From positions 7,626,001 through 7,690,000 of the forward strand of contig JAWMAR010000030.1 in assembly GCA_036785375.1 (NCBI GenBank): a stretch of DNA of 64,000 nucleotides, written 5' to 3'. This stretch comes from Leucoraja ocellata. Lineage: Eukaryota. How positions within the stretch are numbered: position 1 is the first letter of the stretch; every line of letters begins with the position of its first letter. Positions 287-61,936 of the stretch are shown here, one piece after another. The notes beneath the pieces were generated by a model. That model ran no database searches and was not told the origin of the DNA. It saw only the letters and a program-made list of their open reading frames with translations. Both the position numbers and the translations under genes were made by a program.

Positions 287-337
287 CTTTGGACCTGGGG
301 GGCCCTCAGGCCCAGGTATTCCTGGCGGCCCAATAAC
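287..337 (-). CDS. Collagen exon 26 (51 nt) [17 protein letters not shown]
   Basis: ttttgcag acceptor, gtaagc donor, phase 0. Confidence 0.93.
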
Positions 338-3300
338 CTGCAAAAGGAAGAAACATCTTTCAGTGTATACACTAGGCAAACTTTGCAAAAGGTTCATGAA
401 ACAGTGGACTGTGCTGTGCAGGTTCTGATTGTGACTTGTAAAATGGATAGTAGTTTGCTGATTGAGTGGAAATCCTTTTACATGTTGCCATTTGACAGAC
501 AAAAAGATTTCGGGGGATTTAGGCCAAATACGGGCTAATGGGACCAGCTCAGATGGGGTATCTTGGTCAGCATGGATGAGTTGGACCGAAGGGCTGGTTT
601 CCATGCTGTATGACATTAAACACACCAAATCACACATACGTCAGTAATACCCAGAGCTATCTTTTGTCTAATTCTTAGATTTAATTGTTTCCAAAATCTG
701 ATTTTGCTGGATGAAAAATGTTTTGTGTTTTTTTTACAATTTGCTTCAAGTTTCATCTGAAATTGTCCTTTCCTGTGATCTGGATTGCATTGCAAGCTTC
801 AATGGTCATTTTCAGAAAAGGGTAAATTTGTAAAGAAGATACATTTTCAGGGCTAGGGACTAATAGCAAAGTTCTTTCTAAGAGGTGGAATTGCAAATTG
901 GGTGAATAGCCCCCCTTTTGGATGCCCTCTGGTACAAACATAGGGCATCGATCCTGCCCTCGGCTGCTGCATGTGTGGTGTTTGCACGTTCTCCCTGTGA
1001 CTGCGTAGGTTTCCTCCGGGTGCAAAGGTTTCCTCCCACATCCCAAAGACGTACGGGTTTGTAGGTCAATTGGTCTCTGTAAATTGCCCCCAATGTGTAG
1101 GGAGTGGATGGCAAAATGGGATAACATTGAACTTGTGTGAACGGGTGATCAATGGTCAGCCTGGACTTGGTGGAGAGAACGGTTTGTTTCCATCTCTAAA
1201 AACAAAACAAAAACTAGAAAAGGATCTAAATCAGGCACTGGGATGAAGAGTGGGAATTAAATAGGGCTAGATGTTAAATGGAAGTGGTTAAATGTAATGG
1301 GAACTTAAACGGGATGGAGAGGAAATCGAGACCAGCAGCCATTTCCTTGGCACCAATATGGTACTATTCTTCAAGACCACTTTGACCCTATAGTGTTAAG
1401 CACCAAAATGAAGCGAGCATCAGCTGCAGATACTCACAGTTGAGCCTGGAAGTCCAACAGGGCCTGGCAATCCAGGAGGGCCTTGTAATCCTGGCTCTCC
1501 CCTTTCTCCTTTTTCACCTGTGGGCCCATCTAAACCCTAAACACATAATACAAAAGGAAACTACTTCAGGGCATTGAAGGCTAATTCAAAATGCTCTAGT
1601 CTAAGTGTTCAAGAAGGAACTGCAGATGCTGGAAGATCGAAGGTACGCAAAAATGCTGGAGAAACTCAGCGGGTGCAGCAGCATCTATGGAGCGAAGGAA
1701 ATAGGCGATGTTTTGGGCCGAAGAAGGGTTTTCGGCCCGAAACGTCGCCTATTTCCTTCGCTCAATAGATGCTGCTGCACCCGCTGAGTTTCTCCAGTAT
1801 TTTTGTGTACCTTTATGCTCTAGTCTAAGTTGGATTGGTCAGAAATGGGATAGTATTTCAAAAGTAAAGTAACATTTAAGTCTTCTGACTCAACTAACAC
1901 TATAGGGTCAATTTAACTGCAGTTAATGCAAGAAGAATTTATCGTATTTCATAACTTAGCCAGTCTGGTCAACATGTAAAACTTTTGCAGTTCATGATTA
2001 TAAATGAAAACCTTTTGCATATAATTGTCAAAATATTTAACTATGATGAAGATTGGACAGATTTATATTAATGTTTATAGACTCGAGGGCGTATATCTGA
2101 AGTGAGGTTTTGAAGACTTGAACTCACAGGTGATCCGACCATTCCGGTATCTCCTTTGGCTCCCTTGGGACCGGGGAATCCCATAATTCCTGCCTCGCCC
2201 TTGGTTCCTTCGGGTCCCAGTGGCCCTTGTGGACCTGAGGGTCCAAAGTCTCCTGGCTTCCCGCGGGGGCCCTGAGAGGATTAAACCATGTTATCCAGAC
2301 AAACTCTTATTGCCACAAGAAGGGTGAACAAGGGTAAAGACAGATTATGTGAACTCTGTACGCCCATGACGAACAGTGGCTTTTTAAAAATGCAATATTA
2401 CCTTTTCTCCATCAAGTCCTGGTACCCCCGGTAGGCCTATTTCACCCTATAAAAATAGAGTAACATATCAGTAAATACATTCTGCCAATGCATAGCAAAC
2501 AAACTGATTGTGTTTTAGAAACAAGTACGGTGGTGCATAGGTAGCGTTGCTGCCTTGCAGTGACTAAGAGCTGGGTTCAATCTTGACCACGGGTGCTGTC
2601 TGTACAGAGTTTGTACGTTCTTCCCATGACCGCATGGGTTTTCTCCGAGATCTTCGGTTTCCTCGCACATTCCAAAGATGTACAGGTTTGTAGGTTAATT
2701 GGCTTGGTGTGTAGGATAGTGTTGTACAGCTTTTAAAAAATATATATATTAAAGAAAGATTAGAATAAGAAAAAGAGATTAGATAGTAAAGGATAGAAAG
2801 ACGTGAGATATATAGTGTGTGAAGAAAAAGAAAGAAGACGGATGAGTGAAGAAAGTTGAGAAAAAGGAAATAGGAAAAAGAGAATAAAACATAAATTAAA
2901 AAAAAAAAAAAAAAAAAAAGTAAGGAGATCATCATTTATAATCTTGACCAACCCTTGTCCGGTCCTGAAACAGTTATTTTTTACAATTGTGTTGCACCAT
3001 ATGATTCCAAAAAGACGACAAATGGAGACCAACTCGTTATGAATTGGTCTGATTTATCCATTAGGAGGAATCGCATTTCCTCAAGATGAGCGGTGGCCAA
3101 CATACTTGCAATCCACATTTTAAGCGTTGGTATTGATGTATTTTTCCAAAATTTAAGTATTAATTTTTTTGCTATTATTAAACCATAGTTAAAATAAATT
3201 TTGAGATGTGTTCAATTTATTCCCATCTTCCATTATGCCAAATATAATCATTTCAGTATTAGGTTCCATTCTTATCTTAAATAATTTTGTAAATATTTCG

Positions 3301-6300
3301 AAAATATCACTCCAAAATCTATAAAGATTTATGCAGGAAACTAAGGAGTGTGTTATAGTTGCATTTTGGGATAGACATTTATCACAAATGGCGGATATAT
3401 TTGGATAAAATTTGTTCAATCTTGTTTTTGAATAATATAATCTATGTAAAATTTTAAATTGAATTAGGTTATGTCTTACATTAATCGAACATTTGTGAAT
3501 ATATATCAAGTACTTTTCCCATGTAACCTTCGTAATTTTTATCATTAGTTCCCGTTCCCACTCTTCTCTAAGTACCTCTGTCGATGGTAGGTCTATATTT
3601 AAAATACTATTATATAAATATGTGTTAGGATAGTGTTAATGTGCGGGGATTGATGGTCTATGGGGACTCAATGGGCTGAAGGGCCTGTTTTCGTGCTGTA
3701 TTTCTAAACCAAAAAAAAACAAAACTAAAGTAACTGCAGATGCTGGGTTTACAAAAAAAAGGCACAAAGCATCTTCAGATGGTCTGAAGATGAGTCCTGA
3801 CCCGAAATGTCATCTATCCATGTTCTCTAAAGATTCTACCTGACCCACTGAGTTATTTCAGCACTTTAATTGTATTTCAGCTTGCATTTCAAGGTACTTA
3901 AGACATTTCAGTATAAATTCCCAAGTCGCTAACAAGCAACAAACGCAATACAACATTGGGAAAGAAGTGTTTATATTTGCTACTGTATGAAAATGTTTCA
4001 AAAACCAGGAAGCTTCTAATAACAAATACAGCAAAGGAAGTCTTTTTAATATTTATGGGGCTGAAATGAGTATTGCGAGACAGTAAATTGGGAGCCAGTT
4101 TGTATTGNNNNNNNNNNNNNNNNNNNNNNNNNNNNNNNNNNNNNNNNNNNNNNNNNNNNNNNNNNNNNNNNNNNNNNNNNNNNNNNNNNNNNNNNNNNNN
4201 NNNNNNNNNNNNNNNNNNNNNNNNNNNNNNNNNNNNGGCATATATGCATGCACTGAACTTTTTCTCGTTTATTATATTACTTACAGTGTTCTAGGTTTAC
4301 ATATTCCATTGTGCTGCTGCAAGTAAGAATTTAATTGTTCTATCTGGGACATTTGACAATAAAACACTCTAAACTCATGAAAAGCGCCCCGGGTGTAAAA
4401 CAAGTGGAAATCATTACTGTCAACGTGGAAGCTTTCCTGCTTTGAGTCAATTAACTGGGTGAAAACATACCTTCTGGCCTGGTAGACCTGGCATTCCTGG
4501 AACTCCTGGAGGTCCCTAAACATAAATGATACATGTCCTCATCAGTTCATCAGGATAGCGTGACATATTAAGTCATAACCTTGATTTTAGACTGCAAAAT
4601 CATGTAGAATTTCATCCAAAAGTACAATCTGGTGCAATGTTTTTGGCCCATGCCACAATCATGGCCAATATGTATTATTCCTTTAATAACTCAAACAGAA
4701 AAGATATGCCATTATTGTCCAATTCCATGAAACAGAAATGAAATTGAAGGGAAGATCTGCATCATTTTGTTGGGAAACACTTTACAGATAATGATGTCAT
4801 CACTGTTGCAATGTGATGGGTGTGGCAGCCATTTTGTGCACGGCAAGCTCCCATGAACAGAAATGCAACCAATAACTAGAGGTTGTGATGTTCAGTGAGG
4901 ATAAAGGTTGGCCATAATGCCATAGAGAAATACTTTGATCTTCAAAACAGACCCACGGGATCTTCTGCATCCACATGTGAGAGGCTACTAGGCCTCATCT
5001 GAAATACAGCACTTCCTGCAGTACAGCACTCCCTCAGAGTGGGGGAAATCAGTGAGAGTTAAATGCTCAGGCCTCTGGGTTGGGCCTTGAACCTACGATT
5101 GCTAGGAACTATGCCATAGATAATGATACTGGATTCTTGATTTGGTTCTTTCTTTATTCATAATGGAATCATGGAGCAGGATAGAAGATGCAGCCTTGAC
5201 CTTGGTGCAAGAATTGGGCAGTTTCTGCTCTCATCCATTTATGCAGAAGTGAATCAATACTGTGTACTTCAACACAGCAGGTTGGTGTGAGCTGGTGCTT
5301 AATGCAGGAAATGTCGTGAAACCAGGCATGCAGGTATCATTCCAAATGAAGCGGGGTGAATGCATGGGAAGAGAATCAGTTGCAAGCAGAGGAAAGGAAC
5401 TAATTTGAGAGCTGTTTTAATCATAAGCACAATAGACTCAACGGTCTTCACTTATGGCGTGTGACTCTACCATTTGTAAATTGATCTGTTCACACCACCC
5501 CTGGACTATTTACAAAATATATACAGCCACATTGCAGAAAACAACTACAGTGCGTAACTCGGCTCTTAAATAACGTGTACCTGGAGTGCTTCATTGATGT
5601 TACCATTATAGTCAATTATCTCAGTTTTTCCTGCTTCGCCTTTCATACCTGGAAGGCCCTATAGAACAGACATGAGGAATTAAACAACACACTGTTAGAG
5701 TCAGCCTGAAACCTGCCTAATTGAAGCTCATTTTATTCATTCCACAGCCAAACTGGAGGATTAGTGGATGATCTTCAACCATAAATTGTGTCTACAGAGT
5801 ATATGACTTCCCCAGTTTTTAAATGTATTATTTATGATATACAAACCACATCCAATGTAAAATCAGTCAGAAAAAAATGCATAATGTTGAGACTGTTTGT
5901 CCCACCCCCCCCCCCCCCCCCCCCACTTTAAAATTGAAGTCATACTGTAATCTCAGAGAAAAGTGGGAATCACTTTTCATAATCTGCTATTTGTTCCCAC
6001 ACAAGACGGAGGGGTGGGGTTGTAGCTGTGGATGTAGAAACGGAAGGAGGTAGGAGAAGGTGAAAAAGGCTAGAGTGTGTGAGTGTGCGAGTGAGTAAGT
6101 GAATGTGTCTCTCGGGGTCTTTGTGTGGGTATGGGCATATGAGGGTATGCATATTTGTGTATATGCATATGTGTGTATATGCTTAGGCGTGTTTGTGTGT
6201 GATCACATGTGTTGGCATGTGCCTGTTCATACATGTATGTGTGCATATCATTTCCAAATGTAGCAAAACAGCTGCTTTGTCTCTCCTTAGAGGAATTAAT

Positions 6301-9300
6301 TACTAAAACAAACTTGCTTTACATTGAATGTCACCAACTACCAAAGCCAAACTCACCTGAACTCCTCGTTCACCCAATTCACCCTGCAAGAAATACCATA
6401 ACAAATGTTTACTTGAATATTGCAAAAACATGATAGGAGTACAACAATAATTATTCTCCTGGTAACGCCTTCTAATGGTGGCTTTGATAATATCAAGGAG
6501 CTCCAGTGAAGGAAACAAGAGAATATTGAACCCAGGTGCAACTGAGGAGATGGAAACAGGTCACCAGGTGTGGGAAGGTTCAGAAGGACTCTCCTGGGAG
6601 ATGAGGATGATCTTTCACCTGAAAACTGGCACCCTCCTCTATCCTGGAACAACCCCCTACAGACCTGTACACAGGACATCTTCCCAAAGCCCCCCCTCTG
6701 TGTGTTTCTCACTCAAGTGAGTCCCCTCCAATGACTATCATAAAAACAGTCTACACTTCTGGACATCACTCTCCATCTACAGAATCCCTCCTTTCCCAAC
6801 AACCCAGGTCCGTTCTTGACCTAGCCTTCATCTGCTAGCTGAGCCTTTCCACCTTCACTCATAAAGGGAATGAAACAACGACATTGTAATGCACTGCAGA
6901 GTCAAATTAATGAATGGACAGAAATACATGAGGGTGGGCCTCTCTCCGCTTGTTCCCTACACCAGGAACAGGTGATTCCAAACTGCAGATAGTGCGGAGT
7001 GCTCTCGGGTCACTTTGCCAGGTATTGAATTAATGTGCCGACTCCAGTGAGCTGAGCCCCAAACCCCAACAATCCATCCAGTTCCAATACCACCTTGTGG
7101 ATAAGACATTAAACTAGTTGGCTGTAAATTGTTTCCCTGCACGAGCTTAAAGAAATACAGTGGAATTGTCTCCAATGCCCTGGCCAATGTTTATCCCTCA
7201 CTCAGCACCCTGAAGCAGATACATAAGTGTGATTACCCACTTGTTGTGGACCTCACTTTGCTCACATGTCCTGTACCCCTCATTACATTGATGACCATGA
7301 AAGAACTTCATCAACTTCAATGACATTTTGGGTATCCTGAGGTTAGGAAAGGTGCTGTAGGAGTGCAAGTTCTTTCTCTCTAAAATTGACGCGAGTCACA
7401 ACAGACTTCATTCACAGTTTTAAATTTTGATTAGAATAATTTGCTATCATTATGGGGATTAATGAAGAAATAAATGGATACGCACCTTCTGACCTGGAGG
7501 GCCTACAGGTCCAGGCAGGCCTGAATCACCCTTAATTCCACCAGCAGCAGATCCTGGCTCTCCTCCTTCCCCCTGTTTAAGGAGACCACATTGTTCCATT
7601 AAACACAGATGTAGATTAGTGATCATCTATTATTTATCCACAATTGGCAATCTTCTTGTTGGACTCAAATAACAGTGCAACAGATAAAAACTGAAAGGCG
7701 CACACCTTTGTGAATGGACCCAAGAAACATCAGCGAGTCTCGGATTTTTAAGCGCATGACGCTGAAGTCCAAGTCTCACTGAGTGATAAATGGTTGCTCC
7801 AACACTGGATTTCATGGAGAGACCAATGAAAGAGCCCAAGGTAGACACAAAATGCAGGAGTAACAGTGAGTCAGGCAGCATCTCTGGTGAAAAGGGATAG
7901 GTGACATTTTGGATCGAGACCCTTCTTCAGAGGAAGAAAGACTTCAGTCTTCCAAAAGATCAGAGACCTCCATTGATTTCAGATACTCTTTCAGGCTTGT
8001 AGAATGCACGATTTGCTTTTAATTGAATGTCATACTCGAATATTTAATGACGTTATCATTCTTATGCATTTTTAATGCATGTTATATTTCTGGTGTCAGA
8101 AATATTTAAAAATGTTAAGACATAAGATTTTGCCAGAAGACAAATCTCCACGGACAGATTTGCCTCCTTTTAATGCCTGTTCAGGCCGTGCTGGAAACAT
8201 TGGGGGAGTGTAGCTTCAGTTCTACACCATTGCTGCTGATTCCTTGCCTTCTGACCTCAGTTTGCAGACGGGCCGACAAGATTGATCCTTCTAATCCGGA
8301 CATGATGGGAACCACAGTGTTTCCAGCAGAAGTGACGAGCTCTGGGTCTAGCATCTCTGGGTCTGACAGTCTACAAAAGTCACTTCAACACCATCCAAAC
8401 TTTGGTTGTTCGTGTACATAGTTCTAGAATAGTGGCAGTCAGCTATTCTTATATAATTAGCACAATGGCTTCTTTGGTTTCAAGTCATTGCTGCCATTTT
8501 ATTATTCTACCAATCAAAGTAATGTTAGGTAACAAAAACCCCGCATTTATATTGCGTCTTTAATGAAAGAAAGTTCCTAATGAGCATTGTCAGCCAAAAT
8601 AGTAGAAATATTAGGTTACCAAAAGCTTGATTGTTTGAAGGCAAAAAATACCTTAAAGGTGGAGAGGGGAAGGGAGGGAGGGGAGAGAGAGAGAGTGAAA
8701 GAGAGAGTAAGGGAAGTCTGGATGTTGGCATCCAGAACTTCCTAATTTTGTAGTTCTGCCCCAACTTTGGGGTCAACATGATATTAACATTTTAAATTAA
8801 ATTCAAAATATGACTGCAAAATTAAATTATACTGCATACTTTTTTTTCCTTAATATTTATATGCTTTTAAACCGATGAGATGACTGGAAGCAATGAGAAA
8901 GCATAGGGCTGATGTGGCTTTAAATTCTGCTGGCTGAGGTCTAGTCACACTGTTCCCCTGTGCCCCCATCCACAGAACAAATGTAATGACAAGGTTTGGC
9001 TTTGTTAGATACAGCGCGGAAACAGGCTCTTTGGCCTACCGAGTCTGCACCGACCATCGATCCCTGCACATTAGCACTATCCTACACACACACACACTAG
9101 GGACAATTTACACATACTCCAAGCCAATTAACCTACAAACCTGTATATCTTTGGTGTGTGGGGGAAAAACGAAGATCTCAAGATAAAACACACGTGGGTC
9201 ACGGGGAGAAGGTACAAACTCCGTACAGTCAGCACCCGTAGTCAGGAAGGAACTTGGGTCTCTGCCGACGTAAGGAAGCGACTCTACCACTGTAACACCA

Positions 9301-50900: not shown

Positions 50901-53900
50901 ACCGAAGATAGATACAAAATGTTGGAGTAACTCAGCGGGACAGGCAGCATCTCTGGATAGGAGGAGTGGGTGACGTTTCTGGACGAGACCCTTATTCAGA
51001 CTAGGGTCGAAGACCTTAAAGAAAGGTCTCGACGCGAAACGTCATCCATTCCTTCTATCCAGGGATGCTGCCTGTTCCCGCTGAGTTACTCCAGCATTTT
51101 GTTTCTATATTCAGTGGGGAATGAGGGATCAGAGTGATCATGCAGAAACCACAACTGTAATGTCTTTACCCAGAGAATAATTACATTCAATTTAATTATT
51201 TTAGAAAAAATGAAAATCAGCGGACGTATAAAGCAGAGACTGTTGTAGTTACCATGTTGAAACATGCACCAGATTGTTTAATGGTTTATTAAATGGACAT
51301 GCCAACACCAGTGTGATATGGCTGCGTTCTCGAGATCTATATTGTAGATGTGATCACTAGAGGGATGCTCGTATCAAAATGTAACTTAATTTGGGGGCTC
51401 TGGATTGATTTTACGAAACAAATTAATTATTTTAATGATCGCCAACGGCTTTCACTAAGATTGAAAATAATTGCAATGTGAGAAAAACACAGTAAATGTT
51501 TTCAGTAAAACTGGTATTTCAATAATAAAAGTGAGTCAAACTGAATTATGGAGAAAGTTAATTCAGAAAGCGTTAAATCAAAGGGAATGGATGGAATGAA
51601 ACACCATTAATTACATTCTTGAACCGTTAAAATTGAAATTATAGCCATATTTAAGGACTAACTTTGCATTCCTCCCCCTTGCTAGAGAATATATAAACTC
51701 ATTATATGACCTTTTACGTACATGGCTATGAAAACAGACTTTTCAAGAAATATTACTTACAGTCAATGCTGAATCTCCACGTTGACCCTAGGAAATGACA
51801 GAATAATCATATTTGAGTTTGCATTTAGTTTATTATTATGTGTACCAATTAACAGTGACATTTTTTGTTGTGTGCTAACCAGTCAGTGGAAAGACAATAC
51901 ATGATTACAATCGAGCCATTCTTCTTTATGTTCTCAGTTAGTTTTATATCTTCTCTCAGTTTTGCAAACAAATAGTTAACACATTGGAACTTTTTACTTA
52001 ACATTGGTAAAATTTGTAAACTGTGAGCTCTCACCTTGTCTCCTTTTGCACCATGTAGACCCTGTGCAAACATAAACAGTGAGCCATATCCAAAACCACC
52101 TCACTATATCAAAATTACATCTTTAAAGTTCAACTCAGCATTACGATGGTTATAAAGAATGGAACATAAGAATTCAGAACATAAATACATATCTTATGAT
52201 ATCTTGTTTTATATTTACAATAAGAGTATATATTGACATTGACCTAGAGTCTCTCTGTTAGACATCTCATCATAAGCAACGGCAAACAGCAAAACTTCAA
52301 GTAATATTCAGTAAAGCTTCAAGTAATATTCAGTATATTTCAAGTAATAAAATGAAGCTCATGCAAATATATATTAATGCCAGCAAAAAAATGTAATGTC
52401 TCAAAAATATCCATTGACTTGGCCTCCGGTGTATATGCAATGAATTCCACAGATTCAACAGCCTCTGACTAAAGAAATTCCTCCTCATCTCCTTTCTAAA
52501 GGTACGCCCTCTTATTCCGAGGCTATGGGCTCTGGTCCTAGACTATCCCACTAGCGGAAACATCCTCTCCACATTCACTCTATCAGGTCTTTCTTTTGGG
52601 TGATTGGTGGACTGACGTTGGTGAATAAAACCCTACACAGCATTGCTTACTGTTCTGGGTGAGCACTGGAGTTGTGCTGTGAATCTGCACAATGCTTAGG
52701 CCGTGTGTGAGGCTGCCCTGATTATGTTACGGCACAGTTTTGAAAGGGAAGGTAACATGCTTGTGAGGAAAGGTATCTTCCGTGGACAATCGAGTAAATT
52801 GTGCTTGTAGCGGCCAGAAATGCCAAACAGGTCAATATCCTTGAAATCCAGAAACATAGCAAAAGGCACCTTTTTTTTCTTTAGGGAAGTGTTAGATTCA
52901 GTGCTACCTGAAGAAATACATAGGCAAACCTTCTCTTAATATTATGAGTGGGTTATTCTTTGCCATGGAATCTATTCAGTTGATCATTTCCTTCTCCCTT
53001 CCCATCAATCCAAGATTCCTGCAACCCCTAACACTAACCTCACATCTTTCTCTACTTCTCCCACTCCCTTTGATCCTCCAGCAGTAGTTCTTGGAAGAAC
53101 ATTTATTCTCCCCTCGTGTCATTTTTCCCATCTGTTCCTGTTCTTATAAAACCTTTCACTCACAGTCTTCTTTCTAGTAACTTAGCGGGCAGTAATTGAC
53201 TATTTTATTCCTCGTGTTTAAAAGAAATTTGATCTGTTGGGCAGCTGAACTGGCCTCCGACAAAAGAAGCAAAAATAAATAGTATTAGTTCGAACAGCAG
53301 CACTGGGCCAGCATTTTAAATACACACAAACAAAAAAAACCCTCAAAACCAGTCCCCTCAGGAGCTATACAACACGTTCAAATTAGGCTGAAAGATTAAA
53401 CGGTCCCAACCCTATAATTATGCATTCATTACAATAGATTTGAAAGGATTGAATGGCAATATTAAAGCTGGAGTAAGGAGTTTGAAAAAGTAATCCAATG
53501 AACTTGCAATGCACACTGAAACCAGACCAGTTAGTTTGTCCTTGTATACTATTATGCCAGTGTAAAACCTTTGATGATTAATTCATTCAAAGCGTCCAGT
53601 TAGCTACCTGAGATTCACCAATAAATATTCAACTTGGTTGTCAGAGACTGCACACTTCAAAAGCTGCCGCCAGTGTACGTGATTTGTTTTCAGATCATGT
53701 GACTTTCAGCATCAGAATTGTGACTTTCAGATCTTAAAATATGTCAGGAAATAATTTTGTAATGAAGGTTGCCAAAGGCCAGGAATAATCTCATCAACCA
53801 GGAGAAGGGAATGTTCGAATAAAATGCAATCAACCCTGCTCCACATTTTCAGGGTTGGGATTGGTAAATTTATCCACAAAGTTACACTTCATCCAATATC

Positions 53901-56900
53901 CTGCCCACACCATTCCCATGACCACTCTAACTATTTAAGACCCTGTAGGTCTGATTAAACTATAGGTTTATTTATTGCAGCTGTTGCACAAAGTGGAGTC
54001 ATCTATGAGCTATTGCTAGGCCTCAGGAGGTGGGATTAATTTTGTGTACAATTCCTCTTGCTATAAACGTCACAATGCTTCAGAAATACTTGATTGACTG
54101 TTTTGAGATGTCCTAAGGTTATTAAAGGAACTCTTGTAATGCACTTCTTGCCTCTTTCCATTGGTTACCAGATTACCTTCCTTTGGTTATCCAACAATAA
54201 ACATCACCAAAAACAGATGAAGTGGCCATTTGTCTCACTGATGTTACTGGGATTTGTCTACAAAATTGCAATTCATCAAAAATGTGCTTCAAAATACAAA
54301 TTCTCCCCTTCAGCAACTTATTTGATTGTGCTAGCCTTGTTACAAAATTCTTAAGGGGTTGGACAGGCTAGATGCAGGAAGATTGTTCCCGATGTTGGGG
54401 AAGTCCAGGACAAGGGGTCACAGCTTAAGGATAAGGGGGAAATCCTTTAAAACCGAGATGAGAAGAACTTTTTTCACACAGAGAGTGGTGAATCTCTGGA
54501 ACTCTCTGCCACAGAGGGTAGTTGAGGCCAGTTAATTGGCTATATTTAAGAGGGAGTTAGATGTGGCCCTTGTGGCTAAGGGGATCAGGGGGTATGGAGA
54601 GAAGGCAGGTACGGGATACTGAGTTGGATGATCAGCCATGATCATATTGAATGGCGGTGCAGGCTCGAAGGGCCGAATGGCCTACTCCTGCACATAATTT
54701 CTATGTTTCTATGTTATTCCAAATGCTGGGCTTTTTTGCCTGTTGTTCCAATGCATTGATTAACTGAACATTTCAAGAACAAACTATTTTTAAATTGGAA
54801 TTATTTTAGTTTAGTTTAGAGAAACAGCGTGGAAACAGGCCCTTCGGCCCACAGAGTCTGCACCAACCAGCGATCCCTGCACATTAGCACTATCCTATAC
54901 ACACTAGAGACAATTTTACATTTTGTACCTAGCCAATTAACCTGCAAACCTGTAAGTCTTTGGAGTGTGGGAAGAAACCAAAGATGTGGGGAGAAACTGA
55001 AGATCTCGGAGAACACCCACGGGGTTACGGGGAGAATGTACAAACTCCGCACAGACAACACCCATTGTTGGGATCAAACCCGGGTCTCTGGTACTGTAAG
55101 CGTTGTAAGGGAGCAACTCTACCGCTGCGCCACAGTGCCGCCCGGGATGTACTGGAAGAATAGCAAAAATGACCAGCAGTCCTTTGAGGGGATAATGCAA
55201 TGATACAAAGCCACAATTAATGATCACTGCTTATGGCTCAGTATATCAGCACTGTTAAAGGTAGTCTTGAACCTGAGCACTTCAAGGAATAGTTTTCAAA
55301 GAGTCATCTTAAATGTTGTAAATGTTTGGCTTTACAAAGCAGAAGGCTTGCAAAGGGTACAGAAATGAAAATCAAACTTTTGGGCACCTCAAAAATGGAA
55401 CAAAAATTTGTGACTTTAAAGAACAAATTCAGCGATTTCTAGAACAGCCGATGTTGGTTTACAAAAAATGACACAAAGTACTGGAGTAACTCAGTCGGCC
55501 TGGCAGCATCTCTGGAGAACCTGGATAGGTGACCCGAAATGCCACCCATTCATTCTACCCACCAAATTACTCCAGCACTTTGGGTCTTTTTTTAATGAGT
55601 GAATTCTAACTTGCTTTCATTTTACGGTACGTTGCTGTAATCTGTGCAATTTGTAGTGCAGACACCAGCTATTGCAAGCACAGAAGAAATGACACATGCC
55701 AGCAGATAAAAGTGCATCTAGTTTGGAATGAATAGCTGTGACTTAAAGGCATAGACTGGAACTTTAAAATATATGCACAACAGCGTGACTGTCTCTCTGG
55801 TTAATGTGGAAACATGTGCGGCCATTTTCTACATTGCAAGCTCACTCTCATTCATTACTGCTACACATGGGACTAGTTGCACTGGTGATGTTATTTGTTC
55901 CTGTACACTCCTTTATAATTTGAATTACTTTGTATAGATAAAATATATATAAACCATTTTTTTGCTGTTCATTATGGTGTTTACAGAGTAGTACTGCATG
56001 TTGACACATCTGTTGTGCTGATGCAAGTAAGAATTTCATTGTTCCGTTTCAGGACATATGACAATAAAACACTTGACTCAGTCCGTGTGAACCTATCATT
56101 TTAGCCAATTAATAAATGCATTTCTAAACTTCACAAGTTTATTCTTCAATATGTTAAATTCAGAATTGCAACTTACCTTTTCTCCTTTAAGACCAATGTA
56201 TCCCTTTAGAAAGCAACAACACAATGTGATAATATTAGGGAGCTTAAAAACATTGCAACAAAGAACAGATGGAGGTCATTACACCCCCAGGACTGATTTG
56301 CATTCAGTGAGATCATGGTTGACCTGTGATTGTAATTTGTTATATTTATCCTTTTCCAAGATATCATAATTCTCACAGTTATCAATGACAAAATATATGA
56401 AATTGGTAATTTTGCAGCATCAAGTGTTGCCTATGGAACAGTTCCACATCGCCTAGCCCTCTCCGTGTAAATGTGTTCCCTCGCATTCTATCAGTCTTTT
56501 TGATTATTTGTACCTCTTAATGTAATAGCGATCTCTGGACAAAGTTGCTTGGGGGCACCACGTTTTCTAGTTTTTTCACCCAGAGAGTTGTGAATCTGTG
56601 GAATTCTCTGCCTCAGAAGACTGTGGAGGCCAATTCTCTGGATGCTTTCAAGAGAGAGTTAGATAGAGCTCTTAAAATTGGCGGAGTCAAGGGATATGGG
56701 GAGAAGGCAGGAACAGGGTACTGTTTGTGGATGATCAGCCATGATCACTGTGAATGGCGGTGCTGGCCCGAAGGGCCGAATGGCCTATTCCTGCACCCTT
56801 TGTCTTTTATTGTTTCAAACAAATATGACAGTTTACTCAGGACCTCTAAGGCTTAAAATTTTAAATAGATGATATTATCTCTTATTATTGCAGACTTGCT

Positions 56901-59900
56901 CACCTTTTCACCTTTTGGACCAGGTGAGCCCTGCAAAAACATAAAATTAAGTTAGAACTTGAATGTGGATCGTAAAGTTTACTCCCTGTAAAATATGAGA
57001 GGGTGCTTTTCGAATCTTGAACAAAAGTGCAGAAGTGATGAAATTCTGCAGAGGTATTTAAAATCACGTCACATGGTAGGAAATGCTGAATGTAAAGATT
57101 TACATGTAAAAAATTGCAAGACACAGACTCCCATTTCAGAAACTTCAGAGAAGTTGGAAATAATATCCAAAAATATCTGATAATAGTTATTTCACAATTT
57201 CGCCAGATAGTGGTAAGCATTAGTCATTCATGCTGCTGATAAAATTCAACTTGCTAGGAAATAAATATATGAGATTTTGGTTTGTACTTTGGATCTGCAA
57301 CTAAAGATTCCGTGGCTGCATACTGCATACTGCCTATGGGGCTTAAGTTTTGATTTGTGTCTCCAACACTTGAAGCCAGATCACAAATGTCAGTTAGCAA
57401 AATGTAACCCATATTATCTAATTGTTTACACATGCACTCAAATATTCATGTATCAACTTGTATGCATATGGTTTCTTCAACAGCAGTGGGTGTACAATGC
57501 ACATCAAACAATCCTAACAGAGTCCACCAAATAAAGGATTCAATTCAAATTCAATTCAATTAGCTGGAAAGGGTACAGAGAGGATTTACAAGGATGCTGC
57601 CAGGGCCAGAGGGTCTGGGCTATAGGGAGAGGTTAAGGAGGCTGGGACTGTATTCATTTGGAGCACAGGAGGATGAGGGACATGTTGGTCCAAAGGGCCT
57701 GTTTCCACACTCTATCACTCAATGACTTTGACTCTAAAAGTTGAAGAAGGGTCTTGACCCGAAAGGTCACCCATTCCTTCTCTTCAGAAATGCTGCCTGC
57801 TCCGTTGAGTTACTCCAACATTTTTTGTCTATCTTCGGTGTACACCAGCACCTGCAGTTCCTTCCTACACAGATAACTTAAGCTGCCTTTGTTGGTCCAA
57901 CGCTCGATGAAGATGGATAACATTTTGCATGCACCTTCTTAAAGGAAAGCTACTTTGATTTTTGTTATACCTACCATGTCACCTTTAGATCCAGCTTTCC
58001 CCTGAAAAAGCAAAAATAAAATATTAAACAACAGAACACGGACAAAAAGAATATTGCAAATTTATTTTTATTTTCCAACTCCCGCTCCCCAACTTATGAA
58101 ATCAGATGAAAAATATACAAGGAATGAATGTCCCAAGCCCATGTCCACATATGTGCTACGTTGTTTTACTCAGACATTACTGCTTTGAGCCTTCTACTAT
58201 GATATACCATGAGCACATAATCAAACGTTTCATTCATCAATTCAACAATCACTTTAATAAAAACGTCTGTAAGAACAGTATTCCTTTGATTAAAACGTGA
58301 AAAGGCAGAATTGCCCATTTAGCTAATGTAGCCAAATGTTTCTAAGTGCAATGAATTGACTGAGGATTTCAACTTTAAATGAAAGTTCACAACCAAAGCC
58401 AAGTTCAAAGATGTTAGATCAGCTGCTAGACTGATTTTTCTTCATATCAATGTATGTTTGAAATTCCAATCCCGCCAATTTGTGTATCAAACTTGAAAGG
58501 TTAGATGTTCACACAATGGGTAGTTGTGGATAATATATTGCAGTACTACTGAGATCAAAACAACAGCATATTGTGAGCACATTAAAGCTTGGAAATGGGC
58601 TCCAGCCAGATCGCCAGATATCAAATGCCACCAGCAAGCGATATTGAACAAGAAGGCAAAGCGCAATAGATTTAACATTGTGGTTCTCAATGTTTCAAAT
58701 TATTCTGAAATGTTTTGTCTCAATGTATTATATAATAAAAACACATTGAAGACTGATCACTTGCCAAGCACTGAGCAGTCCAGGGCTCACCATGAGGGGT
58801 TCCCAACCATGTCTTCATTTTGAATTAATCATTGGCTTTAGTTGTGGACTTCCATTGCAATATATCCCCCTGTCCTCACTCCATACCTCAGTCCTGAGGA
58901 GGGGTCATAGTATCTTCTGATCCATTTGGCCAGAAGATTTAACCATCCCTTTGAATGTGTTAGCCTGGCTAGTTCAATACCTATACATGGAAATTCAACC
59001 TTGGGACCAAGATGAAGTTTTGTAGCCCAGATGAAGTTTGGCGCTAAGGGTGTCTAAGAGTTTCTCAGAATTAAATAAAATCTCACAGAGTAACCCAGGA
59101 GATGAATGTATCTGTCAATACAGATCATGGATTGAACCAGACTGATGCTGCACGTGATCTCAGGGACAAATAGCAATGGACAACAAATCCTAGCTTTGCA
59201 CATAGCCTGAGAGGGATTAAAAATGATGGAGACTGTTTTTGCTATTGCCTGATTTGATTTGGTCTAAAACCAACACCACTCTCTTAACACCTTCTGATGT
59301 GGACAAGTAATCCAATATGTTGTGGAGTTGCAGGGAAAGGAATAAATATGAGGCACATGCACACGCACAAAAGCTGGTACGGAATGTTTTTTATGATGTT
59401 ACATAATCTTATAACAATATATAGAAAAATGAAATACTTACAGATTTACCATCCAAACCTATAGGGCCCTTCAAAATAAATTAAACATTGATGAATACAA
59501 ATTTAGAATCAAAATGTTTCACAATATAAAATTTAAGGCAGTTGATTATTTTCAAAGACATTTCAGCATCAATGTGACTCTGAATCCATTAGTTGAATCG
59601 AGCAGTGGAAGAGTTAGTACACAAACATAGAAGCAGAGAAGATGCTCTTTTCCAGACTTGTTTAGTCACCAGCATTTTGTTAAGATGCAGATTTTAGCTG
59701 GCTCCCATCAGCTGGTAGTGAAGTGTGTAAAGCACGCTCAAACCTGGTCAGTTTATTGTTTCAATATGTTCACCAAAAAATAAGAAAAAAGACAAACGGA
59801 AGCAGCTTGGCAAATTGAACACAACACAGCTGGCAAGAAATGAATATGTTAAATGGTAAATCATTTCTGACAATATTAACTGTTAAAATATATTTTTCCA

Positions 59901-61936
59901 GTTTGGTGCAAGCGCCAGCACTCAACATCTGGCAACTTAACAGTTTACTGTAGGCGTGAGTAAATTAAAAGCACAGGAGCAAAATATTTTAAAATGCTGT
60001 TCAACTTCACAAGGATAATTCTACATCATTAATAATCACAGTACTTTGGAATAGGTCTGGGCCTTTCACCAATGTATGGATTATATACAAGTATGAAGCA
60101 AGATGTATGCAATATGTTTGTACTAAAGCTGAAGTCACAGTCTCAGCTTTCCTAAACCATGAATGATATTCTATTCCAAACCTCATTACTTCCCGACTAA
60201 TTCCCTTGCTTACACTCTGTAGCTGTTTGTTAAAGGTATGTATGCACGCTGGCTGATCAGAGAGCAGCTGAATCATGAGCAAAGTACATTCCCACAAATG
60301 GCTTCATGTTTCGCTACTATCTTGAGCTCAAGCGCCGAAGATGTACAAACTGTACTCTGCCTTCTGCGCAGCAAATCATTCATGATTAAAGCAGTGTTGT
60401 ATGCAACACTTAACATTTCTAATCAAACACGTGGCAAAAATAGCAACATTCCCATTGCTTCCTAACCCATTCCCAAAATGCTCCATTGGATTAGAATCAT
60501 GGATTCTATGATACAGAACTGAAATGATATGAGAGAACTGCTTGATGTCAGATGAGTGTTCTTCATCACTTTGCTAACACAGAATTCAAAAGCGCATGAG
60601 TGTTATTTCCCTGAACTTTGGGAAGGAATAAGTGACATCCCAGCCTACAAACTCTCAGGGTCAGTAGAACTCCAAAATAATTTAAGTTCCTTCATTTTTT
60701 ATTGAACTCAGATGCAACTTTTAATTTTAACTGAGAATCCATATCATTATGTCTTAGTCTTTTGCTTACTATTACTGATCTATGAAAATATTATCACTCC
60801 CCACTAATTGCAATCCTTGCCTCACACCTTGCTAAGTAGCAGTGACAGGTTAGAATAATCGATATCTGTCAACCCAAATTTCCAGGATCACATTTGCAAG
60901 TTTGCGTTTAAAAAGAGATTGCGCACTTCATAGCAATCCACATAAGTATTATTAGTGATATTTATAGAAAGCTTTCACATGTCAGTCCAAAATGCAGATA
61001 CACAATTCAAGCATTAAAGTTAAGTTTAAGAAAGCCAAAACAGATTTTCCTATCCTCCTATAAGGTCATCAATAAAACTAAAAAAAAAAATAGTTGTACA
61101 ACTCATTTTAATTTTCCATGCGTTCATGGCCACAGACTTTGATGATCTGACAATTGTGGTTGTGCATCAAATTAAGTCATCGTATGTGAAGCGCATTGGG
61201 ACTGTTCAGAGAAAAGTGGAAAACACAACACTTTACCTCTGACTAAACACAATGGGAAAATAACATTGCTTCATTTTCTAGAATAAGTTCAATTTGACAA
61301 TTTAAACGATTATGTCTAAAAGTACTTGACCTAATCAGAACCTGATAAATTTGTTTTGTTTTGAAATATGCTACTGTGCAGAAAGGTCTCGCATATCCCC
61401 ATTCTTGGCAGACGTTCCAGAGACCTTACGCACTGCAGAGATGTGGCTGCCGTCACTTGCAGCTTCCTGCCTGCATCTCTGATTCATCCCTGATATTATT
61501 AGGAGCCTTCCTTAATTAATTTCAATCAGATCATTTTGACAAGTTTGCACTCAAGTTCCAAGGGGCTTCACAGGACTGCTACGTAAGGATATTTGCTGCT
61601 GAGTTTTTAGCAGAGGTACTCAATTGGATATGTTGGAATGGAATCCAAAATGTATGAGAACAGCTTTAATGTGGCGAGCAAGCTAAGCTCAAGGTAATGT
61701 GAAAGTATCAATCAAACCATGCAACTATAGGACAGGCAGCATGTATAACTTATAAATCAAGGTGGATCTAAATACATTATCAATTCCTTTCAGAGTGTCC
61801 ATCCATTCAATCGTACAAATAAATCAAAGAAACTTGGTTATCAACAGCAAACTGTTAAATATTACTGAATAAGTGGATTTCCAAAAGTCTCGCAACACAC
61901 CGGATATCCTGGGAACCCTCTTGCTCCTGGTTGACC
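287..61936 (-). CDS. Partial multi-exon MACIT collagen gene (collagen XIII/XXIII/XXV family), 26 exons, 452 aa visible
   Basis: 26 phase-0 GT-AG exons splice into one open frame of Gly-X-Y repeats with two interruptions. It contains [22 protein letters not shown]2 ...[13 protein letters not shown]3 [12 protein letters not shown] and [19 protein letters not shown], all matching recalled COL13A1/COL25A1 motifs. Paralog identity is unresolved. Confidence 0.93.
945..1215 (+). mobile_element. HE1-like V-SINE, 5'-truncated
   Basis: V-domain ggtttcctccgggtgc..ggtttcctcccacatcccaaagac and ctaaa-type tail. Confidence 0.8.
1438..1536 (-). CDS. Collagen exon 25 (99 nt) [33 protein letters not shown]
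   Basis: gtttag acceptor, gtgagt donor, 11 Gly-X-Y triplets. Confidence 0.95.
1607..1814. mobile_element. Palindromic Penelope-terminus element with 16-bp TSD
   Basis: ATGCTCTAGTCTAAGT at 1591-1606 and 1815-1830; internal inverted arms of about 80 bp; degenerate hammerhead core. Confidence 0.85.
2128..2271 (-). CDS. Collagen exon 24 (144 nt) [48 protein letters not shown]
   Basis: ctctcag acceptor, gtgagt donor, 16 triplets. Confidence 0.95.
2402..2446 (-). CDS. Collagen exon 23 (45 nt) [15 protein letters not shown]
   Basis: tttatag acceptor, gtaata donor. Confidence 0.95.
2527..3730 (+). mobile_element. HE1-like V-SINE split by an L1 insertion (SINE parts 2527-2723 and 3626-3730)
   Basis: tRNA-like A/B boxes and V-domain on the left, SINE 3' tail on the right, TAGGATAGTGTT duplicated at the break. 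Confidence 0.85.
2724..3625 (-). mobile_element. 5'-truncated L1-clade LINE (ORF2 C-terminal cysteine-rich region and 3' UTR)
   Basis: ORF 3189-3545 has [20 protein letters not shown]; after a frameshift it continues [13 protein letters not shown]; pyrimidine-rich 3' UTR. Confidence 0.85.
3731..3866 (+). mobile_element. Penelope-terminus element with hammerhead-like core
   Basis: actgcagatgctgg end; CTGAAGATGAGTCCTGACCCGAAATGTC at 3784-3811. Confidence 0.7.
4108..4236. other. Assembly gap (129 N)
   Basis: run of N. Confidence 1.
4471..4515 (-). CDS. Collagen exon 22 (45 nt) [15 protein letters not shown], start of COL3
   Basis: gtttag acceptor, gtatgt donor. Confidence 0.95.
4795..5100 (-). 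mobile_element. Old Deu-domain SINE (SacSINE1/AmnSINE-like)
   Basis: ggcagccattttgtgcacggcaagctccca ... cagcactccctcag ... ttgaacc motifs; similar decayed copies near 27740-28130, 46770-47030 and 62640-62810. Confidence 0.6.
5581..5658 (-). CDS. Collagen exon 21 (78 nt) [26 protein letters not shown], end of COL2 plus NC3
   Basis: ctatag acceptor, gtacac donor; DYNGN motif diagnostic of MACIT NC3. Confidence 0.95.
5905..5924. repeat. C20 homopolymer (G20 in the collagen pre-mRNA)
   Basis: direct read. Confidence 0.95.
6357..6383 (-). CDS. Collagen exon 20 (27 nt) GELGERGVQ
   Basis: ttgcag acceptor, gtgagt donor. Confidence 0.9.
7486..7572 (-). CDS. Collagen exon 19 (87 nt) [29 protein letters not shown]
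   Basis: aaacag acceptor, gtgcgt donor; contains a short helix imperfection (GSA-AG-GIK). Confidence 0.94.
7840..7932 (-). mobile_element. Penelope-terminus fragment
   Basis: gacacaaaatgc..cagcatctctgg..gagacccttcttcag. Confidence 0.7.
8992..9306 (-). mobile_element. HE1-like V-SINE, near full length
   Basis: reverse complement of the SINE seen at 39703 and 2527. Confidence 0.85.
9685..9729 (-). CDS. Collagen exon 18 (45 nt) [15 protein letters not shown]
   Basis: gtacag acceptor, gtaagt donor. Confidence 0.94.
11852..12077. mobile_element. Harbinger/PIF-like MITE with long terminal inverted repeats
   Basis: about 75-bp near-perfect TIRs starting TGTCCCTGTCCCACT; flanked by TAA and TTA. 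Confidence 0.8.
12165..12745 (-). mobile_element. Decayed Penelope-like element ORF (RT C-terminus and GIY-YIG endonuclease)
   Basis: minus frames read [22 protein letters not shown] and [26 protein letters not shown], with stops and frameshifts. Confidence 0.8.
12855..12908 (-). CDS. Collagen exon 17 (54 nt) [18 protein letters not shown]
   Basis: gcttag acceptor, gtagga donor. Confidence 0.93.
13110..13313. mobile_element. Palindromic Penelope-terminus element
   Basis: inverted arms; CTGAAGAAGGGTCTCGACCTGGAAAGTC at 13219-13246. Confidence 0.8.
13933..14066 (+). mobile_element. Penelope-terminus element
   Basis: CTGAAGAAGGGTCTTGACCTGAAACGCC then cagcatcttcagttccttcctacaca end; an oppositely oriented copy lies at about 14333-14462. 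Confidence 0.78.
14658..14693 (-). CDS. Collagen exon 16 (36 nt) [12 protein letters not shown]
   Basis: acacag acceptor, gtgaac donor. Confidence 0.92.
15478..15778 (-). mobile_element. HE1-like V-SINE, diverged
   Basis: tttag tail, body motifs and tRNA-like head on the minus strand. Confidence 0.65.
16209..16253 (-). CDS. Collagen exon 15 (45 nt) [15 protein letters not shown]
   Basis: ttcatag acceptor, gtattc donor. Confidence 0.93.
17300..17765. repeat. Highly decayed tandem repeat, unit about 24-28 bp, consensus near GGGTACCCATCTCCAGCT..
   Basis: recurrent gg(g/a)ta(c/t)c-ca(t/c)ctcca(g) cores at roughly regular spacing. Confidence 0.55.
17840..18135 (+). mobile_element. 3' end of a LINE (Rex1/RTE-like 3' UTR family)
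   Basis: atcaggcagctgaa..gtacctcggtacatgtgacaataaactaaact; opposite-strand copy at about 24230-24468. Confidence 0.65.
19372..19390 (+). promoter_or_regulatory. CTCF-binding motif
   Basis: TGGCCACCAGGGGGCAGCA, near-consensus core. Confidence 0.65.
19670..19929 (-). mobile_element. HE1-like V-SINE
   Basis: reverse-complement head, V-domain and tail. Confidence 0.8.
20909..20967. repeat. (TAGA)n microsatellite, about 14.75 units
   Basis: perfect tetranucleotide run. Confidence 0.98.
21284..21317 (-). ncRNA. Minimal type I hammerhead ribozyme motif in a Penelope terminus (element about 21220-21318)
   Basis: minus strand reads GU-CUGAAGA-A-GGGCCUCGACCC-GAAAC-GUC-AUCU; activity untested. Confidence 0.6.
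21359..21483 (-). mobile_element. Penelope-terminus element inserted in an old CR1
   Basis: ACTGGGATATAGTGTT duplicated at 21343-21358 and 21484-21499. Confidence 0.8.
22120..23104 (+). mobile_element. 5'-truncated Rex1/Babar-type LINE (RT C-terminal half and 3' UTR)
   Basis: open frame to 22933 with [28 protein letters not shown] (canonical FADD), [36 protein letters not shown]; (cttga)n tail resumes at about 23350. Confidence 0.9.
23105..23339 (-). mobile_element. Penelope 3' fragment: ORF end, pyrimidine-rich UTR, hammerhead-like motif, terminus
   Basis: minus strand TGAACATTGAATTCTCCCAATTT (NIEFSQF, typical Penelope ORF end) precedes CTGAAGAAGGGTTTCAGCCTGAAACGTT; caataaact(c/a)tc duplicated at the flanks. 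Confidence 0.8.
23389..23407 (+). promoter_or_regulatory. CTCF-binding motif
   Basis: TAGCCAGCAGATGGCGCTC. Confidence 0.6.
24469..24672 (+). mobile_element. HE1-like V-SINE 3' part
   Basis: V-domain and gggccgaagggcctgtttcc..ctaaa tail. Confidence 0.8.
25716..26187. mobile_element. hAT (Charlie-like) MITE
   Basis: 16-bp TIR CAGGGGTCGGCAACCT; 8-bp TSD AGGTAAAT/AGGTAAAG; sits in an old CR1 (about 25530-26410). Confidence 0.88.
25916..26050. mobile_element. Short palindromic Penelope-terminus element nested in the hAT MITE
   Basis: GTGAACACGT duplicated at 25906-25915 and 26051-26060. Confidence 0.85.
26684..27178 (-). mobile_element. L2-clade LINE 3' fragment
   Basis: minus strand [19 protein letters not shown]; (TTA)n tail; ATTGTA duplicated at 26678 and 27179. 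Confidence 0.8.
27238..27652 (+). mobile_element. CR1/HER1-type LINE 3' end, interrupted by a MITE
   Basis: aatctgtggaattctctgccacag..gatgatcagccatgatcatattg..gaagggcc. Confidence 0.82.
27311..27504. mobile_element. Harbinger-like MITE, CpG-rich
   Basis: TIR core GGCTGTCCCACT / GTCGGACAGGCCC; internal homology (inverted) to 62818-63063. Confidence 0.7.
27999..28018. repeat. C20 homopolymer
   Basis: direct read. Confidence 0.95.
29243..29287 (-). CDS. Collagen exon 14 (45 nt) [15 protein letters not shown]
   Basis: acacag acceptor, gtagtt donor. Confidence 0.92.
30885..30911 (-). CDS. Collagen exon 13 (27 nt) GDQGDVGQK
   Basis: taacag acceptor, gtaata donor. Confidence 0.9.
31315..31377 (-). 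CDS. Collagen exon 12 (63 nt) [21 protein letters not shown]
   Basis: cctcag acceptor, gtaaac donor. Confidence 0.94.
32995..33420. mobile_element. Two adjacent diverged palindromic Penelope-terminus elements
   Basis: ggaactacagatg.., gaagaagggtcc..gaaacgtc and cagcactttgtg motifs; further copies at about 31875-31970 and 32030-32190. Confidence 0.65.
33455..33860 (-). mobile_element. CR1/HER1-type LINE 3' end
   Basis: reverse complement of the CR1 ORF2 tail and 3' UTR ending (ctctatga)n. Confidence 0.72.
33930..34198 (-). mobile_element. HE1-like V-SINE
   Basis: tail, body and B-box on the minus strand. Confidence 0.8.
35280..35485. mobile_element. Palindromic Penelope-terminus element
   Basis: gtgtaggaagaactgcag start, inverted arms, ctgaagtagggtctcgacccg core remnant. 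Confidence 0.78.
38653..38706 (-). CDS. Collagen exon 11 (54 nt) [18 protein letters not shown]
   Basis: tatcag acceptor, weak gttgga donor. Confidence 0.92.
39703..39990 (+). mobile_element. HE1-like V-SINE, full length
   Basis: ggcacagtggtgcagtggtagag A-box, gggtttgatc B-box, V-domain, ctaaact tail. Confidence 0.85.
42070..42267. mobile_element. Palindromic Penelope-terminus element
   Basis: inverted arms; terminus cagcatctgca..cctacaca; cacaaa(a/g)gg.aggagat repeated at the flanks. Confidence 0.78.
42313..42357 (-). CDS. Collagen exon 10 (45 nt) [15 protein letters not shown]
   Basis: ttttcag acceptor, gtgggt donor. Confidence 0.93.
43210..43648. mobile_element. Penelope-terminus fragment (43210-43311) followed by HE1-like V-SINE (+, about 43348-43648)
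   Basis: family motifs as above. Confidence 0.78.
44727..45118 (-). mobile_element. L2-clade LINE 3' end
   Basis: [32 protein letters not shown]; (TGACT)n tail. Confidence 0.85.
45153..45254 (-). CDS. Collagen exon 9 (102 nt) [34 protein letters not shown]
   Basis: tcccag acceptor, gtaagt donor; resembles COL25A1 [28 protein letters not shown]. Confidence 0.95.
45467..45532 (-). CDS. Collagen exon 8 (66 nt), non-collagenous NC2: [22 protein letters not shown]
   Basis: gttcag acceptor, gtaaat donor, phase 0; positional and motif homology to NC2 of XXV (SADQQLIKRRLIK) and XIII (PPPVIKRRTFQ). Confidence 0.85.
48108..48447. mobile_element. Harbinger/PIF-like MITE with TAA TSD
   Basis: TIR AGCCC(A/C)TGTCCCACTGTACGAGGT..; TAA at 48105-48107 and 48448-48450; interior largely palindromic. 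Confidence 0.85.
48985..49380 (+). mobile_element. Old CR1-type LINE 3' end
   Basis: aggatgagaggtgacctcatcgaa..ttcacccagtgggtggtg motifs. Confidence 0.65.
50869..51112. mobile_element. Palindromic Penelope-terminus element with two inverted hammerhead-like cores
   Basis: arms of about 100 bp; gacgtttctggacgagacccttattcag and gaaaggtctcgacgcgaaacgtc. Confidence 0.82.
51761..51787 (-). CDS. Collagen exon 7 (27 nt) GQRGDSALT, end of COL1
   Basis: ttcctag acceptor, gtaagt donor; equivalent position to XIII GQCGEYPHR. Confidence 0.87.
52035..52061 (-). CDS. Collagen exon 6 (27 nt) GLHGAKGDK
   Basis: gcacag acceptor, gtgaga donor. Confidence 0.91.
52295..52349. repeat. 22-bp tandem duplication, about 2.5 copies
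   Basis: cttcaagtaatattcagta repeated. Confidence 0.8.
54341..54715 (+). mobile_element. Young CR1/HER1-type LINE 3' end
   Basis: [38 protein letters not shown] frame; (ttctatgt)n tail. Confidence 0.9.
54806..55142 (-). mobile_element. HE1-like V-SINE, full length
   Basis: (tttag)n tail, V-domain and tRNA head on the minus strand. Confidence 0.88.
56177..56203 (-). CDS. Collagen exon 5 (27 nt) GYIGLKGEK
   Basis: ctaaag acceptor, gtaagt donor. Confidence 0.9.
56570..56812 (+). mobile_element. CR1/HER1-type LINE 3' end
   Basis: [22 protein letters not shown] frame. Confidence 0.85.
56904..56930 (-). CDS. Collagen exon 4 (27 nt) GSPGPKGEK
   Basis: ttgcag acceptor, gtgagc donor. Confidence 0.92.
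57740..57870 (+). mobile_element. Penelope-terminus element
   Basis: TGAAGAAGGGTCTTGACCCGAAAGGTC..cagcacctgcagttccttcctacaca. Confidence 0.78.
57975..58001 (-). CDS. Collagen exon 3 (27 nt) GKAGSKGDM
   Basis: tttcag acceptor, gtaggt donor; XIII has GHPGPKGDM. Confidence 0.92.
59442..59468 (-). CDS. Collagen exon 2 (27 nt) GPIGLDGKS
   Basis: ttgaag acceptor, gtaagt donor; XIII has GPIGLDGKP. Confidence 0.93.
61901..61936 (-). CDS. Collagen exon 1 of window (36 nt) [12 protein letters not shown]
   Basis: atttag acceptor, gtgtgt donor; XIII has GQPGTRGFPGFP. Confidence 0.93.

Follow-up and report, generated by a model that had tools for sequence, protein, structure and literature searches.

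A spliced MACIT collagen gene of the skate Leucoraja ocellata, probably the orthologue of COL13A1

A collagen gene of the skate Leucoraja ocellata carries segments that resemble collagen XIII next to segments that resemble collagen XXV, which raises the question of whether it is one of the three known MACIT genes (COL13A1, COL23A1 and COL25A1) or an additional member of the family. The gene lies in a window of 64,000 nucleotides (contig JAWMAR010000030.1 of assembly GCA_036785375.1, positions 7,626,001 to 7,690,000), and all coordinates below count from the first letter of this window. A first-pass annotation of the same DNA had proposed two readings, a fourth paralogue and a slowly evolving orthologue that keeps ancestral states. 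Our sequence comparisons indicate that the gene is likely the skate orthologue of COL13A1, one that probably keeps segments that mammalian collagen XIII changed or lost.

Gene model and transcript support

The minus strand carries all 13 motifs of the first-pass annotation. A phase-0 exon scan recovered 26 phase-0 exons running from position 61936 down to 287 on this strand, every one with AG/GT ends, and together they form a stop-free, in-frame chain of 452 aa. Pure Gly-X-Y exons with splice signals number 17 on the minus strand, versus none on the plus strand and none in each of 20 shuffles. The spliced 452-aa protein that had been described earlier is confirmed by this chain and the shuffle control. 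The exon chain is far beyond chance expectation, and the gene is a real, spliced MACIT collagen. Its exons, all on the minus strand, are listed in the order of transcription.

61901..61936, minus strand: exon 1, 36 nt, COL1
59442..59468, minus strand: exon 2, 27 nt, COL1
57975..58001, minus strand: exon 3, 27 nt, COL1
56904..56930, minus strand: exon 4, 27 nt, COL1
56177..56203, minus strand: exon 5, 27 nt, COL1
52035..52061, minus strand: exon 6, 27 nt, COL1
51761..51787, minus strand: exon 7, 27 nt, last part of COL1 and first part of NC2
45467..45532, minus strand: exon 8, 66 nt, NC2 hinge with basic end
45153..45254, minus strand: exon 9, 102 nt, last part of NC2, carrying the single Cys, and first part of COL2
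42313..42357, minus strand: exon 10, 45 nt, COL2
38653..38706, minus strand: exon 11, 54 nt, COL2
31315..31377, minus strand: exon 12, 63 nt, COL2; a candidate alternative donor would end the exon at 31327
30885..30911, minus strand: exon 13, 27 nt, COL2
29243..29287, minus strand: exon 14, 45 nt, COL2
16209..16253, minus strand: exon 15, 45 nt, COL2
14658..14693, minus strand: exon 16, 36 nt, COL2
12855..12908, minus strand: exon 17, 54 nt, COL2, basic stretch
9685..9729, minus strand: exon 18, 45 nt, COL2
7486..7572, minus strand: exon 19, 87 nt, COL2 with helix imperfection
6357..6383, minus strand: exon 20, 27 nt, COL2
5581..5658, minus strand: exon 21, 78 nt, end of COL2 and MACIT NC3 motif
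4471..4515, minus strand: exon 22, 45 nt, COL3, supported by contig spacing
2402..2446, minus strand: exon 23, 45 nt, COL3, 14/15 identical to the pangolin XIII-type record P0168
2128..2271, minus strand: exon 24, 144 nt, COL3, XIII-type
1438..1536, minus strand: exon 25, 99 nt, COL3, 24/33 identical to the same-place exon of mammalian XIII
287..337, minus strand: exon 26, 51 nt, COL3 after the imperfection; the transcript runs on past the window

The 3' part of the model was compared with four sequencing runs of a related species, taken by guess to be RNA, which were aligned to positions 200-6000, a region with exons 1-20 outside it. Junctions 26/25, 25/24 and 24/23 occur at the predicted sites in contigs of two of the four runs (X17 and X19, from two studies). 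Run X24 has one read across junction 25/24, and run X15 has none of the three junctions in the region 200-6000. Splicing of the 3' exons 26 to 23 is observed in the related species. Exons 24 and 21 lie 90 nt apart in one X19 contig, which equals the combined length of exons 22 and 23; in that transcript, this spacing leaves no room for an exon inside the assembly gap of 129 N (4108-4236) that interrupts the exon 22-23 intron. Each listed exon piece differs from the related-species contigs by 0-2 letters, the one difference that was checked being synonymous, and one contig extends about 800 nt beyond exon 26. Repeat-derived reads pile up on the intron that contains 3192-3635 (minus strand), a LINE fragment with a weak zf-RVT match under the Pfam cut-off.

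Some further features of the locus lie in or beside its introns. The intron between exons 14 and 15 is 13 kb long and holds, at 21836-22930 on the plus strand, a 365-codon open frame with matches to RVT_1 and ALKBH8_N (DUF1891-type), which is read from these matches as a piece of a LINE retrotransposon. A perfect (TAGA)15 microsatellite occupies 20909-20967. In exon 12, a possible second donor 12 nt earlier (31315-31327, minus strand) would give a 51-nt exon and a second COL2 imperfection. Two COL2 imperfections are the state of both XIII and XXV, and use of this donor would give the same.

Domain layout and database searches

The predicted protein begins with the last 63 aa of COL1 (residues 1-63), followed by NC2 (64-98, 35 aa), COL2 (99-310, 212 aa), NC3 (311-324, 14 aa) and COL3, which starts at residue 325 and leaves the window. 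COL2 and COL3 each contain one helix imperfection. As predicted from this layout, the molecule is a rod in which two non-collagen hinges separate three collagen domains. Its single Cys is residue 96, at the border of NC2 and COL2 (exon 9, 45153-45254, minus strand), and could crosslink chains. None of the three human MACITs has a Cys at this position in the alignment of PMC4678570 (supplement 1).

MACITs are recognized by an N-terminal type II transmembrane segment, a juxtamembrane furin site, an interrupted helix and a two-cysteine C-terminal motif (PMC4678570). The window gene has the interrupted triple helix, with COL1 to COL3 divided by NC2 and NC3, and exon 21 encodes the NC3 motif common to XIII, XXIII and XXV. 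No transmembrane segment, furin site or C-terminus was found within the 64-kb window; the stretch upstream of exon 1 (61937-64000) has no collagen or membrane exon among its top candidates, and no flanking gene was found in the window.

Database searches agree with the family assignment at NC3. With exon 21 as query, 33 proteins were returned among 1.84 billion representatives, and 32 of them carry the MACIT NC3 motif, the remaining one being an unrelated repeat protein. Pfam Collagen matches exons 24 and 25 above its cut-off. The exon 24 homologue search returned 118 collagen-domain proteins, of which none is named as a MACIT or carries either the NC3 or the C-terminal motif, and a search with the NC2 exon and its flanks had no return. 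Even well-known full-length MACITs are missing from our profile search, so these blanks likely reflect low-complexity filtering and are uninformative on novelty. The exon 21 query gave no hits in the PDB and only generic collagen clusters in the Atlas. A metagenome scan yielded five loci, two with XXV-type exons and three that are AT-rich chance matches.

Relationship to collagens XIII, XXV and XXIII

Of 1536 candidates in the profile search, 35 were hits, some of them partial models that carry a name; none of the 35 is an XXIII or a cartilaginous-fish MACIT. The XXV-type references taken from it are P0161-P0165 (carp, two lizards, bird and vole), and the XIII-type references are P0166-P0169, four mammalian records. 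The named XIII references are thus all mammalian, and they are partly mis-predicted; exons 23-25 are whole only in the pangolin record P0168, whose nearest named Atlas clusters are collagen XIII, after one generic collagen fragment. Human XIII, XXIII and XXV and the worm collagen COL-99 were taken from the supplement 1 alignment of PMC4678570 and compared by hand counts. Identities refer to a block of exons 21, 23 and 24, aligned triplet-wise with the in-frame glycines dropped. Block counts exclude P0166, P0167 and P0169 (XIII-type) and P0164 (XXV), models that lack these exons or are corrupt in them. A six-sequence tree (one XIII, no XXIII and no outgroup), which by its sampling cannot separate an orthologue from a sister ohnologue, was discarded along with its distances because exon 24 of XXV was out of register, and the triplet-wise alignment was used instead.

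Over the block, the window gene is identical to P0168 at 41 of 64 positions (0.64), and the hand count against human XIII gives the same fraction (41/64). Orthologues of known relationship, carp XXV against three amniote XXV sequences, reach 0.64-0.69 with no gaps. Identity of the window gene to the four XXV sequences is 0.45-0.52 and needs 4-6 gap triplets, and XIII against XXV gives 0.40-0.47. Measured against this benchmark, identity to XIII is at the level of orthologues and identity to XXV at the level of paralogues. Hand counts against human XXIII range from 26/60 to 28/56 (0.43-0.50), and the sister pair XXIII and XXV, in which mammalian XXIII may evolve fast, gives 28/58 (0.48). About six shared states or gaps unite the window gene and XIII against XXIII and XXV, versus about two for each other pairing. 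The block of exons 23-25 reaches a score of 378 with P0168. Its score is 257 with bird XXV and no higher than 261 with any of the 118 collagens from the exon 24 search. Among the references, a counterpart of exon 25 at the same place occurs only in XIII-type records (24/33 identical), and the XXV models seen have none. Orthologue-level identity to XIII, the shared states and gaps, and exon 25 together lead us to reject XXV and to consider XXIII unlikely. On these comparisons, the gene is placed on the collagen XIII side of the MACIT family.

The likeness to collagen XIII (human and P0168) extends to the order of COL1 segments, the 22-aa length of the NC2 segment and the NC3 motif, along with the orthologue-level identity of exons 23-25. 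Unlike XIII, the window gene has one more 27-nt COL1 segment, an NC2 sequence identical at only about 5 of 22 positions (by eye) with its Cys placed differently, and one COL2 imperfection instead of two. Its COL2 is 40 aa longer than that of human XIII (212 versus 172 aa, hand count), and its NC3 exon encodes 26 aa, as in XXV, versus 23 aa in XIII-type records. For two exons the search gave no candidate: the short one placed after NC3 in human XIII and XXV, and the one that XIII has between exons 25 and 26.

Collagen XXV (COL25A1, also CLAC-P; P0161-P0165) is the closer match in several of the remaining segments. Exon 9 scores 142 against XXV and 109 against XIII, exon 19, with the COL2 imperfection motif, 88 against XXV and 75 against XIII-type records, and exon 26 80-84 in three of the four XXV models that have the exon and 65-68 against XIII-type records. 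Part of NC2 is also XXV-like, exon 8 being identical to vole XXV at 7 of 22 positions. Unlike XXV, the window gene has a different series of COL2 exons, and its COL3 exons 23-24 are at paralogue level. At 25 sites of the six-sequence alignment where the four XXV sequences agree and XIII differs, the window gene has the XIII state at 10, the XXV state at 7 and neither at 8. Collagen XXIII (COL23A1, human) likewise has no short exon after NC3 and, judged by eye, has some residues of exons 4, 21, 23 and 24 in common with the window gene; it differs in its low identity by hand count, in having no comparable NC2 segment, and in a collagen region much shorter than that of the window gene.

The mixture of XIII-like and XXV-like segments noted in the first-pass annotation is therefore real, and the single invertebrate MACIT helps to interpret it. 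By eye, in the supplement 1 alignment of PMC4678570, the motifs present in exons 1-2, the INE in NC3 and one exon 10 motif are common to the window gene and C. elegans COL-99, whose collagen domains number seven and whose NC3-type segment is longer. Because the worm has them, these motifs are ancestral and carry no information on orthology. The motifs singled out earlier as XIII signatures are indeed present, but two of them also occur in COL-99 and are ancestral rather than XIII-specific. The imperfect motif of exon 19 had been likened to the 29-aa segment of XIII; it is a better match to the first imperfection of XXV and XIII. By the logic that applies to the worm-shared motifs, and with mammalian XIII as the reference, the XXV-like segments (exons 8, 9, 19 and 26 and the NC3 exon of 26 aa) probably represent ancestral states altered in mammalian XIII.

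If the gene is COL13A1, it is an ordinary gene, and its value would be mainly that of a slowly evolving reference for late changes in mammalian XIII, namely a short COL2, a 23-aa NC3 exon and an altered NC2, and of a warning that motifs which seem to be signatures when seen from the human paralogues are often ancestral. By analogy with mammalian XIII (PMC7848082; PMC4678570), an N-terminal type II membrane anchor and a furin site would be encoded upstream of the window, chains would trimerise via coiled coils with the helix folding from N- to C-terminus, and the rod would have its hinges in NC2 and NC3. Both a membrane-bound and a shed form would serve cell-matrix adhesion, and both may help the neuromuscular junction to mature on its pre- and postsynaptic sides, as in mammals (PMC7848082).

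Alternative placements and chromosomal context

Grouping with XIII would also be expected of a sister ohnologue, and sequence grouping cannot separate the two. The gene might be a fourth ohnologue from the genome's two duplication rounds (2R), sister to COL13A1, retained on the skate chromosome corresponding to chicken 22 and lost in bony vertebrates. Such a gene would work as the other MACITs do, bound to the membrane or shed. A gene that groups with XIII yet differs from it in NC2 and in the lengths of COL2 and the NC3 exon, and lacks two exons, would suit this origin. PMC4678570 reports XXIII and XXV as the closest pair and a fourth copy as lost early; from this pairing we infer that the lost copy would be XIII's sister. 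Chondrichthyans are known to keep ohnologues lost elsewhere, with 19 genes kept there and lost in bony fishes (PMC10115646). However, the 0.64 identity to XIII is at orthologue level and exceeds the 0.48 hand-counted between the sisters XXIII and XXV, of which mammalian XXIII may evolve fast; only three MACITs are reported in the elephant shark (PMC4678570); and the chromosomal evidence from the little skate described below also points away from a fourth gene. No report of a fourth MACIT was found in a literature search with most subscription journals outside its coverage, passages of PMC8455134 contain nothing on MACITs, and the PMC8040251 supplement gave no hits for three gene names. We regard a fourth ohnologue as unlikely. 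If it were one, it would be an intact, spliced gene with a longer COL2 and an NC2 hinge of its own, databases would mislabel it as XIII-like or XXV-like, the published three-gene model would be overturned, and the family would gain a member of potential interest at the neuromuscular junction and in electric organs.

In the little skate, a gene named Col13a1 (LE18532) corresponds to a Hi-C bait at 8.74-8.79 Mb of Leri_34C (PMC10115646). In the same study, Leri_34C and Leri_15C form a pair of alpha segments whose beta partner is Leri_35C; the Col13a1 region corresponds to Leri_34C and chicken 6, the fourth paralogon to Leri_35C and chicken 22, and COL23A1 would be expected on Leri_11C. The GC content of the window is 0.4099. 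The 500-kb bin of Leri_34C that holds Col13a1 also has 0.4099 and is flanked by bins of 0.4095 and 0.4056; these are the three lowest of the 15 bins listed there. The 15 bins listed for Leri_35C have 0.424-0.471, so that none is at or below 0.415 and all lie above the window. This comparison assumes that our skate is near the little skate and covers 15 bins per chromosome, and low-GC stretches occur elsewhere; it is weak, circumstantial evidence that the window fits the skate Col13a1 region rather than Leri_35C. Three MACIT-named models occur among the rows listed in the skate tables of PMC10115646, which cover differentially expressed genes and loop baits only; they are on Leri_34C, on Leri_1C or among the chromosome 1 gene ids, and col23a1 is absent from the rows listed. 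Skate gene ids were rejected as a position map, as the Sowahb-1, Exoc1-2 and Stim2 baits lie at 95.5, 64.0 and 82.5 Mb despite close ids. With identity to XIII, exon 25, the COL-99 motifs and GC all in its favour, an orthologue that evolves slowly and keeps ancestral states, here COL13A1, is the better supported of the two readings offered in the first-pass annotation; the other, a fourth paralogue, appears improbable.

Assignment to one of the other two known genes is less probable still. A slowly evolving COL23A1 orthologue that retained exons lost in bony-vertebrate XXIII would account for the missing short exon after NC3, as in human XXIII, and for the XXIII-like look (by eye) of exon 4, of the first part of exon 21 and of a stretch within exon 24. 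We consider it quite unlikely, because identity by hand count, for which human XXIII is the one available sequence, is at paralogue level (0.43-0.50), the window gene is without the states that XXIII and XXV have in common in exons 9 and 24, and exon 25 is otherwise found only in XIII-type records. COL25A1 itself, or a chondrichthyan-specific duplicate of a MACIT gene, seems very unlikely even though XXV is at least as close as XIII in exons 8, 9, 19, 21 and 26, since XXV remains at 0.64-0.69 without gaps from carp to bird and the window gene reaches only 0.45-0.52 with 4-6 gap triplets. A duplicate might be suspected from two Col25a1-named models among the rows of the little-skate tables (PMC10115646, supplementary file 2), LE13442 with no Pfam match and LE13836 with Collagen, whose neighbouring ids give conflicting positions. 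In frog and gar, COL25A1 is represented by two adjacent models (PMC10972751, supplementary file 6), which may account for the two skate names, and the two skate models are probably one split gene.

Among the rows listed in the same supplementary file 6, the COL25A1 and COL13A1 orthogroups (OG_3847 and OG_5509) include lamprey and hagfish genes, in contrast to the statement in PMC4678570 that cyclostomes are without MACITs. The sea-lamprey genes of these orthogroups are on chromosomes 8, 21 and 22, and the hagfish genes on 5 and 6.
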